NCBI GenBank assembly: GCA_963675755.2
Contig: CAXXMD010000002.1
Coordinates: forward strand, 992,001-1,056,000
Length of the DNA stretch: 64,000 bases
Source: a bacterium
GTDB lineage: Bacteria > Zhuqueibacterota > Zhuqueibacteria > Residuimicrobiales > Krinioviventaceae
Reading direction: 5' to 3'
Shown here: positions 43,902 through 54,912 of the stretch, one piece after another
Numbering within the stretch: position 1 is the stretch's first letter
Layout of the letters: every line of letters starts with the position of its first letter
Notes under the pieces: model-generated
What the model was told of the DNA's origin: nothing
Databases searched by the model: none
The model's input: the letters and a program-made list of their open reading frames with translations, nothing else
Program-made: the position numbers and the translations under genes

Positions 43902-44966
43902 TCAAGCCTTTTTCTTCATTTGATATACTTGTGCCAGAATCTCAGCAACGACCTGGTACAATTCTACAGGTATTTCATGACCAACTTCAGCGGTCTTGTA
44001 CAATAAACGAGCTACAATCGGTTTTTCGATTATAGGAATATCATTTTCTTTTGCTATTTCTCTTATCTTTAATGCTATCTTGCGCATACCTTTAGCCACA
44101 ACAACAGGTGCCGACATTTTTTCAGAATCAAATCGAAGTGCAACAGCATAATGAGTCGGGTTGGTTATAACTACATCCGCAGTGGGCACATCACTCATCA
44201 TACGATTTCTTGCCTGCTCACGTTGTATTGCACGAATTCGGGATTTAACAAGCGGATCACCTTCAGACTGTTTCATTTCTTCTTTGATTTCCTGCTTGGT
44301 CATTCGCAGGTTTTTCTCATACTCATATTTCTGGTATGCAAAATCAAGAATGGCAAGAAGAATAAAAACCATACCCACTCTGAAAATCAATTTCAAACTA
44401 AGACTACCAATAAAAGCTGTAATCTGGCTGATATCCTGATTTACCAGTTTAAAGAATTCATCCATTTCACCTTTAATGGTTATATAACCCACTATGACAA
44501 TAATTGTCATCTTTAACACATTCTTTATCAATTCAATAAATGATCTTAAAGAAAAAAGGCGTTTGAATCCGGCTATAGGATCAATCTTTTCCAGTTTGGG
44601 TTCAATAGAATGTGTAGAGATAGTAACTCCTGATTGAATGACATTTGCTGCTACACCAGCAACCATAATGGTTAATAGAAAAGGACCCAAAATAAATGCA
44701 AATGCAAGACCAGCGTCTTGAGCCAGTTGCGGCATATTGTTAACAGTCAATTCCATTGTACCAAAATCTCTAAAAACACTTGAAATAAAAACTTTGATAC
44801 TGTTGAACATATGTTTGCCATAGATAACAAAACCCAATCCCGAGATCAACAAAATTACTGCCGAGTTGACCTCGTTACTTCGGGGAATATTTCCTTTTTC
44901 TCGCGCCTCCTGCTTTTTCTTAGGAGTCGCCTGCTCAGTACGTTCTTGAAAGGATTCTTCTGGCAT
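43902..44966 (-). CDS. flhB: Export switch FlhB
   Basis: ERTEQATPKK, EGDP, NPTH autocleavage site. Confidence 0.98.
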   Translation of the reverse strand: MPEESFQERTEQATPKKKQEAREKGNIPRSNEVNSAVILLISGLGFVIYGKHMFNSIKVFISSVFRDFGTMELTVNNMPQLAQDAGLAFAFILGPFLLTIMVAGVAANVIQSGVTISTHSIEPKLEKIDPIAGFKRLFSLRSFIELIKNVLKMTIIVIVGYITIKGEMDEFFKLVNQDISQITAFIGSLSLKLIFRVGMVFILLAILDFAYQKYEYEKNLRMTKQEIKEEMKQSEGDPLVKSRIRAIQREQARNRMMSDVPTADVVITNPTHYAVALRFDSEKMSAPVVVAKGMRKIALKIREIAKENDIPIIEKPIVARLLYKTAEVGHEIPVELYQVVAEILAQVYQMKKKA

Positions 44967-51625: not shown

Positions 51626-51662
51626 TAAAAGAAAACGGGGGCGAGCTTTTTTACTCACCCCC
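51626..51662 (-). terminator. Intrinsic terminator after flgE
   Basis: GGGGGTGAGT-loop-GCTCGCCCCC followed by GTTTTCTTTT on the minus strand. Confidence 0.85.
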
Positions 51663-51670
51663 TATTTATA

Positions 51671-53707
51671 TTATCTTGTTTTCAATTGAACAATTTCATT
51701 CAACAAGGTATCACTGGTTGTGATAATACGTGAATTTGCCTGAAAACCTCTCTGAGAAATAATCATATTTGCAAATTCTTCAGCAAGGTCAACATTAGAC
51801 ATTTCAAGATTTTCAGGTGCTATTTCAGCCTGAATAGTTGAACCTGCCCAACCACGGACCGGCATACCACTATTGGCGCCAACCTGAAAAACATTTTCAC
51901 CAACTTGGTCAAAACCCTGAGGATTATTAACAGTTGCTACAGCAACCTGGGCGATTGTCTGACTTACACCATTGGTGAAATGTCCGGTAATTGTTCCGGT
52001 TTCATCAAATGAAAAGTCATAAAGTTCACCCATTCCGTAACCATCCTGCATACTGGGTACAGCAGAGGTAGTGCTGTTAAACTGGGTCAAGCCATTAAAG
52101 TAACCTGCTTCACCAGGATCAAGAACAACTTCCATTGTGGCAGAACCATCACCTGGTTCAAAAGTTAATGGATTACCATCCTCAATCTCAATTGCTGACA
52201 AACTACCATCAGGATTAAACTTACAATAGCCTCTGTTACCGGCGGTTGGTTCAATTGTACCATCATCAATAGTACATTCCCATTTCCACAAGTCAGGGTC
52301 AGTCAATGTTGAAATATTGGTGAACTCGATTTCCAATGTATGAGGCGTACCTTTGGAATCATAAATCAAAATACTTGTAGTATGTACACCTGCATCCTGA
52401 CCTTCAATTTGAGTATTGAATGTAGGAGTAGAAACAGAGTTGTAATTCTGGTCTGTCATACTGATAGCACAAGTACGCTCAGAAACACCAGCTTCTGCAT
52501 CTGATACAGTTACATTACCAGCAGAATCGATTGTAACTTCGGCACCAGGGAAAACGGAATCAATTGCTGCTAACAAATCACCAACAGTACTGGGGTTACC
52601 CATACCGTCAGCGTCAGCCTGGTAAACAAATACACCGGATTTACCATAACCATCTTTATCAGCACCGTTGATATTGATTTCATCACCATCAACAAGAACA
52701 CCGTCAAAAAATGGAACATCATTCAACGAAGTTGTTGCAGTTGTTCCATATTCAGTCCCGGTTATACCCAAAGTTGAACCTGCATCTGAAAAAGTACCGC
52801 CAATAGTAATAAAAGTATCAGCACCACCGGTATCAGTTGTACGGATTCTGAGATAATCCATATCATTTTCTGTTATAGATTCAGCAACAATTTCACTAGT
52901 TAACTGGCGTGTTGAATCTATCTGATTATTGATTTCAGCTACCAATTCTTTCAATGTACCATAAGTACCATTTGTAAGTGTCAAAGTAGCAGTTAAACTT
53001 TCATCAGCATCATCATCAATAGAAATCTCTATCTGATTATTTGTATCATCAATTACAATACCATTGGGATCAGCAGCCAAAACATCTGCCCAGGAATTCA
53101 CACTGGTTACTGCGGCATTCTTGGAATAGTCAGCAGCAAGAACTTTGGAAACTTTACTGGTATCAGAATTCAAATTACCTGTTAATTGAACCTGAGAAGT
53201 GGCCTGTGCAGGCGCTTTTTGGCCAAAAGGTAAAGCGATACTCGAAATATCTGTAGAATTGGTTAAATCGCCTGTAGCATCGGCTGTACGTCCCTGTACA
53301 CGAAGACCGGTATTTCCATATACCAAATAACCGCTGCTGTCAATGGTAAAATTACCTGCACGGGTAAAGTATTCCTGTTCGCCATCGCTGAGTAAAAAGA
53401 ATGCATCTCCATCAATAGCGAGATCCAGACTGCTGCCTGTACTTTGAAAATCTCCCTGGGTAAAAAGTTTATCAATACTACCTATTGACATACCAATACC
53501 AACATATTGGGGATTCACACCACCTGTAGCTGAAGAAGGTTGAGAACCAATGGTAAGAGCTTGGGAAAGGTTTTCTTCGAAATTTACACGAGCTGCCTTG
53601 TAAGCAGTTGTGTTAACATTTGCAATATTATTACCAATTACGTCTAACTGGACTTGATGATTACGAAGTCCAGAGACCCCTGCGTATAATGAACGTAACA
53701 TTTTCAT
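51671..53707 (-). CDS. flgE: Hook protein FlgE (large, 678 aa)
   Basis: MLRSLYAGVSGL, GNNIANVNT, LEMSNVDLAEEF...QRGFQANSRII. Confidence 0.97.
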   Translation of the reverse strand: MKMLRSLYAGVSGLRNHQVQLDVIGNNIANVNTTAYKAARVNFEENLSQALTIGSQPSSATGGVNPQYVGIGMSIGSIDKLFTQGDFQSTGSSLDLAIDGDAFFLLSDGEQEYFTRAGNFTIDSSGYLVYGNTGLRVQGRTADATGDLTNSTDISSIALPFGQKAPAQATSQVQLTGNLNSDTSKVSKVLAADYSKNAAVTSVNSWADVLAADPNGIVIDDTNNQIEISIDDDADESLTATLTLTNGTYGTLKELVAEINNQIDSTRQLTSEIVAESITENDMDYLRIRTTDTGGADTFITIGGTFSDAGSTLGITGTEYGTTATTSLNDVPFFDGVLVDGDEININGADKDGYGKSGVFVYQADADGMGNPSTVGDLLAAIDSVFPGAEVTIDSAGNVTVSDAEAGVSERTCAISMTDQNYNSVSTPTFNTQIEGQDAGVHTTSILIYDSKGTPHTLEIEFTNISTLTDPDLWKWECTIDDGTIEPTAGNRGYCKFNPDGSLSAIEIEDGNPLTFEPGDGSATMEVVLDPGEAGYFNGLTQFNSTTSAVPSMQDGYGMGELYDFSFDETGTITGHFTNGVSQTIAQVAVATVNNPQGFDQVGENVFQVGANSGMPVRGWAGSTIQAEIAPENLEMSNVDLAEEFANMIISQRGFQANSRIITTSDTLLNEIVQLKTR

Positions 53708-53725
53708 ATCTCCTTAAATAGAGTT

Positions 53726-53781
53726 CTAAAACCGCATCTGTCATTCAGCGGTTTAGAGCCTCCCACTTGGGGTCCGGCCCT
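53726..53781 (-). ncRNA. Candidate cis-regulatory structured RNA in the flgE leader
   Basis: Two adjacent GC-rich hairpins: GGGCC-GGA-CCC(CAAGT)GGG-A-GGCTC and AAACCGC(TGAATGACAGAT)GCGGTTT, just 5' of the SD AAGGAG. Confidence 0.6.
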
Positions 53782-53792
53782 TTTAATTCAAA

Positions 53793-54197
53793 TTAATTAA
53801 TTACTAGTGCACTATCGATATTTGTGAACACATTTTCACGTAAACCTTCACTGTCCATGGCAGTGATCACAGTTCGATTCGCAGCACTGACAACAAAGGC
53901 ATTGTTATCCATAAGAATCAGGGATTCATTTCCGCCTTTTTCAAGAATTTTGTCAATGCCGTTTTGCAATCGCATTCGGTCTTCATCAGATAATTGAATA
54001 TTCCTTTCCTGAATACGATTTTGCGCGTGTACGGAAAACTTTAGATCATCAGTCTGTTGACTGGTTTGTTGATCAAGAATTTCCTGAAAACTGGTTCCGA
54101 TTTGTGCCTGAGCATTAATACTTTTCTTAATTCGCTCAGCACCTGACGGTCCTCGGATACCAGAAATATTGTTTATGTTCTCAGGCAAAAAACTCAC
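53793..54197 (-). CDS. TIGR02530-like flagellar operon protein
   Basis: SFQEIL, LKFSVHAQNRIQERNI, NRTVITAMD, NVFTNIDSA; lies between flgD and flgE. Confidence 0.85.
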   Translation of the reverse strand: MSFLPENINNISGIRGPSGAERIKKSINAQAQIGTSFQEILDQQTSQQTDDLKFSVHAQNRIQERNIQLSDEDRMRLQNGIDKILEKGGNESLILMDNNAFVVSAANRTVITAMDSEGLRENVFTNIDSALVIN

Positions 54198-54216: not shown

Positions 54217-54912
54217 TTATGATTCAGTATCTGTATTTTCTTCACTTTCTTCTGCTGCAACAATTTCAAGTACTTCACTGATAGAAATCTCTGCATCTCC
54301 GACCATAAAAGTTGGGGTGCCATCATTATAACGCAATCCAGTGACCGTTCCACGGAAAACGGGAACAAAATCAACCTTTTCACCACTGTCGTTATATGCT
54401 GCAACATCCATATAATAAACACCTTCGCTCACAGTACCACCACCTAAATTGGTACCATCCCAGGTTGCGGTTACATTTCCAGCATTCTGGTAATCCAAAT
54501 CAATTGTTTTAACCAGACTACCATCTTCAGTGTATATGGATACAGTTACATCTGAAGCATCTTCAGCTAGAGTAAATTCGACCTCTTTTTCACCACTTCC
54601 TGACCAAATGACAGAATCTGACTGGGCAAGAATATCTTTACCAATTACCGAAGACACTATAGAGTTATGCATTGACTGTGTCAGGTATGCATCTGTCTCA
54701 AGCTGTTCATTCACTGTATATAACTGTTCAAGTGAACTAAACTGTGCCAATTGGGCAACATACTCTGTGTTGTCCATAGGGTCTAAGGGATCCTGATATT
54801 TTAATTCAGTAACCATCAGGTTCAAAAAAGCATCTTTATCCATTTCACTGGATGCCGAGCTATCTGAATTTACACTGTATTCGTAATATGTACCAACCGA
54901 TGAAATTGGCAT
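54217..54912 (-). CDS. flgD: Hook cap FlgD
   Basis: FLNLMVTELKYQDPLDPMDN...QLAQFSSLEQL; Ig domain with WDG. Confidence 0.96.
   Translation of the reverse strand: MPISSVGTYYEYSVNSDSSASSEMDKDAFLNLMVTELKYQDPLDPMDNTEYVAQLAQFSSLEQLYTVNEQLETDAYLTQSMHNSIVSSVIGKDILAQSDSVIWSGSGEKEVEFTLAEDASDVTVSIYTEDGSLVKTIDLDYQNAGNVTATWDGTNLGGGTVSEGVYYMDVAAYNDSGEKVDFVPVFRGTVTGLRYNDGTPTFMVGDAEISISEVLEIVAAEESEENTDTES

Follow-up and report, generated by a model that had tools for sequence, protein, structure and literature searches.

We analyzed a 64,000-nucleotide stretch from a bacterium of the family Krinioviventaceae (phylum Zhuqueibacterota; assembly GCA_963675755.2, contig CAXXMD010000002.1, positions 992,001 to 1,056,000). 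This whole stretch is called the window, and positions are counted from its first nucleotide. The subject is the spacer between an open reading frame (ORF) of the TIGR02530/PF12611 family and flgE, the hook protein gene, together with the structured RNA that this spacer encodes. The gene order is flgD, TIGR02530, flgE, all on the minus strand (Table 1), which is the placement that characterizes the family. The TIGR02530 protein scored 109 bits against the curated TIGR02530 cut-off of 83.2 and 46.1 bits against the PF12611 cut-off of 21.1, and both scores support its membership. An earlier note, made from the DNA letters alone, had proposed that this protein and a folded flgE leader form a module controlling hook synthesis. 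Both genes likely start downstream of the listed positions. The true start of TIGR02530 is likely TTG 54188, which gives 131 amino acids (aa), has AGGAGG 8 nucleotides (nt) upstream and agrees with a 131-aa form in the database. The true start of flgE is likely ATG 53701 (MLRSL..., as in relatives), 8 nt after AAGGAG, in which case the spacer is 91 nt long.

The minus-strand spacer was predicted to fold into two hairpins, H1 and H2. H1 reads GGGCC-GGA-CCC(CAAGU)GGG-A-GGCUC. Its outer stem (GGGCC/GGCUC) and inner stem (CCC/GGG, loop CAAGU) are separated by a 5' bulge GGA (53775..53773) and a 3' bulge A53761. H2 reads AAACCGC(UGAAUGACAGAU)GCGGUUU and consists of a 7-bp stem and the 12-nt loop UGAAUGACAGAU at 53747..53736. 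Folding thus reproduced the two hairpins, the GGA/A internal loop and the 12-nt loop that the earlier note had described. Its placement of H2 just upstream of the flgE Shine-Dalgarno (SD) sequence also held, but the distance between the end of H2 and AAGGAG was 13 nt rather than about 10. The minimum free energy of the spacer was -24.1 kcal/mol, compared with -17.6 +/- 2.9 for shuffles (z -2.2), and 3 of 200 shuffles folded equally well; taken alone, the excess stability of the window fold is modest.

Both hairpins were kept in the spacers of eight relatives, seven from the same order and one distant. Across these relatives, the H1 sequence was conserved, the H2 stem differed in sequence yet still paired, and the H2 loop kept GA-NN-GA-NN-GA. 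A covariance model (R1), made from eight order-level sequences only (about five distinct), was run on 80 TIGR02530 loci in one-genome-per-species contigs of many phyla, and a second model (R2) was rebuilt from 56 of the R1 matches. The models were quickly calibrated, and their E-values are rough. At E<=1, 69 matches were obtained with R1, and the stricter limit of E<0.01 left 59 loci. Every one of these lay on the gene strand, from a few to some tens of bases 3' of the TIGR02530 stop codon; the minus-strand matches of R1 numbered only two (E 0.59 and 0.97). When R2 was applied to 21 loci (13 without an R1 match and 8 with a weak one), 15 matched at E<=0.003, raising the total to 74 of the 80 loci at E<0.01. 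Two loci (L027 and L058) had only weak R1 matches (E 0.034 and 0.07), and four of the 80 (L051, L060, L065 and L081) matched neither model. By record label, the positive loci belong to Bacillota (Clostridia, Negativicutes, Bacilli), Desulfobacterota (Geobacteraceae), Bacteroidota-labelled metagenome-assembled genomes, Kryptoniota and Calditrichia, and also to Cloacimonadota, Fibrobacterota, Eremiobacterota, Armatimonadia, Actinomycetota, Bdellovibrionota and Spirochaetia. The window motif scored 72.4 bits under R1 and is the only copy in its own 6.48-Mb genome (R2 63.6 bits, E 3.4e-12).

The base pairs were supported by two alignments. In the 69-sequence alignment, which was fitted to the model and is therefore biased toward the structure, standard pairs occupied 94.6% of the cells, compared with 31-52% when the partners were slid by 1-3 columns. 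Changes on both sides were seen in 14 of the 15 pairs, including all seven pairs of the H2 stem, and none of 500 shuffles attained any of five pairing measures. RNAalifold, run on the 56-sequence alignment, predicted an identical set of 15 pairs, and 13 showed compensatory changes. Because the structure is conserved in the eight relatives and in most of the 80 distant loci, it is far beyond chance. These results confirmed the structured RNA of the earlier note and showed it to be conserved and covarying over many phyla.

The consensus reads nnn-gGCY-GG(a)-CC ... GG-(a)(a)GCc, followed by a stem of free sequence that closes n-GA-MY-GA-nn-GA-n. Among 56 sequences, the two bulge G of H1 were invariant (56/56), the third bulge base was A in 44, C in 10 and U in 2, and the G and A of the H2 loop GA-NN-GA-NN-GA were 93-98% conserved. 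The conserved nucleotides are thus the unpaired ones, namely the bulge GG and the GA repeats, and the sequence of the H2 stem is variable. A clade variant was also seen. In eight loci (L079, L066, L056, L007, L004, L010, L055 and L061), labelled Bacteroidota, Kryptoniota or Calditrichia, a long extra hairpin replaces the 5-nt loop of H1 and the bulge is GGC, not GGA.

The motif is new to the Rfam catalogue. Rfam 15 (4227 families) gave no match in the spacer at E<=10 and none in 10 motif-bearing loci at E<=1. A search of the full-text literature, with subscription journals and bioRxiv supplements outside its range, returned no description of this RNA or of a TIGR02530 function, and no viral contig matched the DNA pattern of the motif. 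Termite-flg (RF01729) and flg-Rhizobiales (RF01736), presented in passages of Weinberg et al. 2010 (PMC2864571), are likewise candidate cis-regulatory RNAs upstream of flagellar genes. In contrast to the motif, both have a narrow taxonomic range, and neither gave a cmscan match; the Termite-flg seeds are about 105 nt long and lack the GCYGG..CC/GG..GC core and the GA-repeat loop.

The position of the motif relative to genes was determined next to TIGR02530 and elsewhere. A start codon was identified in 46 of 54 loci, at a median of 27 nt (range 10-123) beyond the 3' end of the motif; the linker between them was usually A-rich and unstructured, and the motif ended about 10-20 nt ahead of the SD. 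The 5' end frequently adjoined the stop codon upstream, and the gap between this stop and the model start had a median of 12 nt in 49 loci; it was 7 nt or less in 20, and in 15 the stop lay inside the model span. Two further features were rejected. A third hairpin pairing with the SD is not a conserved feature; it was seen in the window and two relatives but not generally, and the linkers are A-rich. Mimicry of the anti-SD sequence by the inner stem of H1 (CCUC/GAGG) is not general either, as flgG-type copies use CUG/CAG.

A DNA pattern of the motif alone found at least 80 loci in metagenomes. Among those listed with at least 420 nt upstream (74), a TIGR02530 ORF ended upstream in 64; in 63 of these it was within 135 nt, and in the remaining one an inserted gene set it 761 nt away. 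In two more, the TIGR02530 stop lay inside the motif. The other eight were read by eye from terminal sequences. Three were flgF-motif-flgG arrangements, one lay between a hook-like gene and flgE, and one lay between two flagellin genes. In another, the motif was followed by a short flgE-like gene and then TIGR02530; one was an orphan with a good H2, and the last, without an H2 stem, is probably a chance match. This variant order, with the family gene downstream rather than upstream, is that of metagenome contig L128:895-2203, whose hook/rod-like gene has 277 aa. In whole genomes, 13 copies that did not adjoin TIGR02530 were examined, and nine of them precede FlgG genes (TIGR02488 268-375 bits, cut-off 252.75). 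The other four comprise one before flagellin, two that follow a rod gene and precede cell-wall genes, and one ambiguous copy. Taken together, these placements make the motif a leader of genes for axial proteins; flgE is the usual one, flgG is frequent and flagellin is rare. The description of a flgE leader in the earlier note fits most copies and is too narrow for those before flgG and, occasionally, flagellin genes. The two copies beside cell-wall genes (L264:1466-1525 and L267:1489-1546) lie after the rod-gene stop and before TagA-like glycosyltransferase and LCP transferase genes; they may be remnants or serve another use.

We compared the occurrence of the RNA with that of the protein. Among 41 relatives, counted irrespective of flagella, the same eight genomes hold both and the other 33 neither. 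A phylum sample consisted of 151 genomes from the phylum of one positive genome. The RNA was found in 102 of them (149 matches, 1-4 each) and the protein in 105. Both were present in 101 genomes, one had the RNA only, four had the protein only and 45 lacked both. When the filters were off, a weaker motif (21.8-34.2 bits) appeared beside the gene in each of the four genomes with the protein only. The sole RNA-only genome, G156, is an incomplete case and carries a flgF-motif-flgG copy. In a sample of 151 Bacilli genomes, FlgD served as the marker of flagella; PF07559 (FlgE_D2), present in 3 of 151, was unusable. FlgD was found in 111 genomes, TIGR02530 in 69 (all with FlgD) and the RNA in 65 (all with TIGR02530). 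In the four Bacilli genomes with TIGR02530 and without the RNA, the protein is divergent and scores 60-73 bits, under the cut-off. The RNA was absent from all 42 Bacilli genomes with FlgD but without TIGR02530. All 65 Bacilli matches directly follow the gene, with a gap of 0-28 nt in 64. The phylum and Bacilli samples overlap (e.g. G149 and G277) and kin are not independent, and these counts are descriptive rather than tests. The RNA did not occur independently of the gene, in keeping with the pairing that the earlier note had proposed. One genome, G207, has two TIGR02530 genes (C1:828346-828734 and C6:2435-2789), each with its own motif, and a third motif before flgG (L271).

The TIGR02530 protein carries the motifs F54-S55-V-H57-A58-Q-N-R61-I-Q-E-R65-N-I67 and N107-R-T-V-I-T-A113, which correspond to the FSxHAxxRxxxRxI segment and the strands ending in VITA that had been noticed before. 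The invariant residues include F37, F54, S55, H57, A58, R61, G88, S92, N107, T112 and the run N122-S129, and H57, R61, R65 and K87 are invariant or nearly so in the family alignment. AlphaFold2 modelled residues 50-134 confidently, with a predicted local distance difference test (pLDDT) score above 90 over most of this domain; in residues 1-35, the score is near 50. When the model (residues ~50-125) was compared with solved structures by VIA-align, 11 of the 12 top rows were RelE, ParE, YafQ, HigB (YoeB also) or other toxins of toxin-antitoxin systems, and rank 4 was the RelE-like RNase domain of Cami1. The top rows had Z 5.0-6.1, a root-mean-square deviation of 2.7-3.7 A and 61-75 aligned residues. 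Foldseek gave no match in PDB at E<=0.001, and sequence searches of solved structures, with the single protein or a profile, gave none either. Protein Atlas returned the protein's own family only, and no longer or fused forms were found, which is weak evidence.

The earlier note had likened the motif to DUF4258/RelE-like (BECR) RNase folds. A DUF4258 (PF14076, Ntox49) model, made from an alignment of the same phylum (pLDDT 94.5), served as the control and matched the same solved chains at Z 5.7-7.2, and MqsR at 9.6 and BrnT at 7.5. The predicted models of TIGR02530 and DUF4258 share the order short strand, two helices and 3-4 strands, and the N-terminal FSxHAxxRxxxRxI helix is common to TIGR02530 and DUF4258. 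The hhalign comparison of these two families gave a probability of 92.8% (E 4.1e-7) over 24 columns covering this helix. With PF14076, the window protein reached 12.2 bits (E 0.24), short of the gathering score of 25. Of 44 TIGR02530 members, 30 touched this model below threshold (E<=10), the best at E 0.0055. No antitoxin or immunity gene lies beside TIGR02530, whose neighbors are flgD and flgE. Unlike RelE/ParE and DUF4258, it is a single copy fixed between these two genes, and it has an additional disordered N-terminus of 50 residues and an invariant C-terminal NVFTNIDS. Passages of Gerdes 2025 (PMC11980606) place DUF4258 in the RelE/ParE superfamily with a BECR fold, describe its activity as uncharacterized and leave its catalytic residues unestablished, and those of a 2026 preprint (10.64898/2026.08.28.747851) place it in the colicin-like BECR branch; the main-text passages of neither source mention flagella. 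Judged from predicted models and sequence profiles, the TIGR02530 domain is likely BECR/RelE-like and distantly related to DUF4258. It is not established as a DUF4258 member, since it scores under the Pfam threshold and has no antitoxin context. The fold proposed earlier was partly supported, by the RelE/ParE likeness and the local match to DUF4258, but not by the PF14076 score or the Foldseek search. In the phylum of the window, canonical DUF4258 genes are common and multi-copy: 61 of 101 sampled genomes have them, one with as many as 11. This tally takes in one unpublished genome, G115, which contributed no sequence. At E<=0.001, none is present in the genome of the window. A TIGR02530-like ORF (ps41/gp136) is reported for megaphage G (PMC12484599).

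The N-terminus, which in the model is disordered before about residue 35, is otherwise variable in the family but holds an invariant Phe in S-F-x-x-[IVL]-[LF] (SFQEIL in the window, F37..L41). Of 120 homologues, 115 have the pattern F-x-x-[ILVMFA]-[LFIMV], with its median position at residue 35 (range 29-44) and 13-25 residues ahead of the folded domain, and Ile, Val and Pro abound in the first dozen residues. In early flagellar export substrates, the gate-recognition motif is written as F-x-x-x-hydrophobic. According to passages of Bryant et al. (PMC8983047), this small hydrophobic motif (FlgD residues 36-40) docks on FlhB-C, and it lies at least 30 residues from the N-terminus with small non-polar residues. 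The TIGR02530 N-terminus thus has the sequence features of an early (rod/hook-type) substrate. The window FlgD (AFLNLM, 28-33) and FlgE (NFEENL, at about residue 40 of the MLRSL form) have similar motifs. From this resemblance, TIGR02530 could be a candidate early export substrate.

Other features of the locus are collected in Table 1. The consensus scan found 5 terminator-like sites per 5 kb, compared with 3.0 +/- 1.8 in shuffles, and the hairpin after flgE is suggestive of a terminator. The flgE message would then have structure at both ends, with the leader hairpins at one and this hairpin, before motA, at the other. The Flg_hook match of the FliK-like ORF (40.2 bits) is confined to the last ~70 residues (1305-1375), and the remainder is of low complexity with abundant N, S, T, K and Q. 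A length of 1421 aa would imply an unusual hook or ruler, provided that FliK serves as a ruler.

Table 1. Features around the TIGR02530-flgE spacer, with positions in the window
Feature	Position	Strand	Basis
FliK-like ORF, 1421 aa	59193..54928	minus	ORF list, Pfam Flg_hook
flgD (hook cap protein)	54912..54217	minus	Pfam FlgD 84.8 bits, FlgD_ig 62.2 bits
TIGR02530/PF12611 'Flagellar_put' ORF	54197..53793	minus	listed from GTG 54197
Spacer, 85 nt as ORFs are listed	53792..53708	minus	between TIGR02530 ORF and flgE
Two-hairpin RNA motif	53725..53782	minus	covariance-model match
Hairpin H1	53780..53756	minus	predicted fold and covarying pairs
Hairpin H2	53754..53729	minus	predicted fold and compensatory changes in all 7 stem pairs
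flgE ribosome-binding site	53715..53699	minus	AAGGAG 53715..53710, likely ATG 53701..53699, alternative ATG 53707
flgE (hook protein, 678 aa, D2 insertion)	53707..51671	minus	Pfam Flg_bb_rod, FlgE_D2, Flg_bbr_C, LlgE_F_G_D1
Terminator-like hairpin directly 3' of flgE	51662..51637	minus	consensus scan; 10-bp stem (7 GC), then GTTTTCTTTT
motA, motB	after flgE and its terminator-like hairpin	minus	gene order
FlhB (source of FlhB-C)	44966..43902		window

The reading that we prefer, at a probability of roughly 0.5, is that the leader RNA is a cis-acting partner of the TIGR02530 protein in a module that tunes the synthesis of hook and rod subunits, with a putative recognition of the RNA by the protein. 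Of the refuting observations named in the earlier note, none was made here, and its interpretation is partly supported. The RelE/DUF4258-like domain would recognize the H1-H2 leader of the flgE mRNA. It would then either block the ribosome-binding site sterically or cleave the leader endonucleolytically, and so set the amount of hook protein. The same control would act elsewhere on the distal-rod protein FlgG and, rarely, on flagellin. As for the sign of the effect, we infer that repression is favored. Direct recognition is favored because the conserved nucleotides are unpaired and the element edges the ribosome-binding site of highly expressed axial genes, and because the RNA tracks TIGR02530, including in copies far from the gene. 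A precedent for the cleavage variant is RegB of phage T4, a small RelE-fold RNase that cuts mRNAs at ribosome-binding sites, at GGAG, and reprograms expression. RegB was among the weak VIA-align matches (Z 3.3). It has no sequence relation to TIGR02530, the conserved RNA here lies upstream of the SD, and cleavage here is hypothetical.

Several points weigh against this reading. The RNA and the gene are adjacent, and their co-occurrence could mean inheritance as one block; in addition, kin among the genomes compared do not count independently, and some genomes belong to both large samples. A candidate protein-RNA covariation, of the bulge base (A versus C/U) with a D/K column of the protein, has its nine non-A cases in about three lineages. 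Three of the 13 extra copies have no flagellar gene downstream. Regarding the protein, the fold Z of at most 6.1 is under the 7-8 that unrelated models can reach, and Z<8 can reflect a common arrangement alone. The hhalign match is limited to its 24 columns, and the second invariant His and Tyr of DUF4258 have no obvious counterpart in TIGR02530. Finally, the export-like N-terminal signal may point to a role of the protein beyond the cytoplasm.

In the main alternative, which we regard as possible but less probable, the RNA is a cis leader independent of TIGR02530. It would be a processing element or 5' stabilizer through which the abundant flgE (and flgG) message outlasts the remainder of a long operon transcript, or the site of another host factor, and TIGR02530 would be an unrelated, possibly exported, hook-assembly protein that travels along as a neighbor. 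The place of the motif before highly expressed axial genes suits this explanation, as does a flgE message capped by structure at both ends, with the terminator-like hairpin following the gene. The resemblance of the TIGR02530 N-terminus to exported early subunits is consistent with it as well, and the tight adjacency seen in 64 of 65 Bacilli matches would make co-inheritance of the block easy. However, flagellated Bacilli without TIGR02530 have none of the RNA (0/42), and the distant flgG-leader copies occur in gene-bearing genomes, with the incomplete G156 as the exception. Furthermore, the conserved bulge and loop nucleotides resemble those of protein-recognition sites and would be needless for a mere stabilizer. 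A riboswitch-like sensor, in which the two hairpins would respond to a small molecule or ion and gate flgE translation, is improbable in our estimate. Highly conserved unpaired nucleotides with covarying stems, a fixed distance to the ribosome-binding site and a wide spread over phyla speak for it. Nevertheless, the element has just 57 positions in two simple hairpins, it showed neither a multi-helix junction nor a pseudoknot, and the A-rich, unstructured linker offers no conserved expression platform. A strict tie to one protein gene would be unexpected for a metabolite sensor, and the Rfam result argues in the same direction.

A known control of flagellar leaders had to be considered as well. 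In the FliW-CsrA circuit, which is coupled to the assembly of flagella and to secretion, the leader of flagellin mRNA is the target of a small protein. In B. subtilis hag and C. jejuni flaA, the protein acts near the SD of an axial-protein mRNA, much as proposed for TIGR02530. CsrA-FliW control of flagellar mRNAs is established (PMC4894983). The leader could then be a CsrA site (GGA in H1 and the AGGAG of the SD) that extends this circuit to the hook, and both the H1 bulge and the SD of the window do contain GGA. We consider this highly improbable. In 12 of 56 sequences, the bulge A gives way to C or U. The GGA belongs to an internal bulge rather than a hairpin loop, and the best-conserved element, the GA-NN-GA-NN-GA loop, contains no GGA. 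An invariant loop GGA with one copy overlapping the SD, as in CsrA leaders, was not found. The RNA tracks TIGR02530 rather than flagella in general, its targets are hook and distal-rod genes and not mainly flagellin, and the candidate protein is RelE/DUF4258-like in fold, not CsrA-like. There is equally little chance that H2 with its U-run is an intrinsic terminator or attenuator, or that the element acts as DNA, as a promoter or operator. UUUU does follow H2 in the window and in L082, but the U-run is missing from most relatives, the 12-nt loop is atypical of terminators, and H2 was not among the sites of the consensus scan; the combination of short loop and conserved U-run was absent, and the earlier note was right that this is not a plain terminator. 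With respect to a DNA element, the spacer has no sigma-70-like site, and the G-U pairs and strand-specific matches point to RNA. A sigma-28 or sigma-54 promoter, read by eye, was rejected; the spacing and the -35/-12 elements misfit, and the stems covary.

A bolder version of the preferred reading, which we think unlikely, combines leader control with export. FlgM is a late export substrate that acts on transcription through sigma-28, and its cytoplasmic level is set by its own export. TIGR02530 would be its mirror image, a secreted post-transcriptional checkpoint; it would resemble FlgM as a small regulator governed by its own export and differ as a putative early-class substrate acting on mRNA. 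The domain would bind or cut the flgE and flgG H1-H2 leaders in the cytoplasm, and the N-terminal motif would dock at FlhB, with export or gate-holding only in the rod/hook mode. An active export gate would thereby license the synthesis of hook and rod subunits. After the FliK/FlhB switch, the unexported protein would re-accumulate and shut this synthesis down. In a variant, the protein would tether these mRNAs to the export gate for localized translation.

If the link between the protein and the leader is true, it would give a function to the widespread TIGR02530/PF12611 family, which a 2026 survey (PMC13277936) still lists as 'function unknown', and the catalogue of RNA families would gain an entry. 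Such a link would also mean that a toxin-type BECR domain has been domesticated for the control of housekeeping genes. The finding bears on how about 120 hook subunits and few copies of the neighboring proteins arise from one long flagellar operon. It also bears on how hook synthesis is stopped at completion, and both questions are poorly understood beyond the enterobacterial transcriptional hierarchy.

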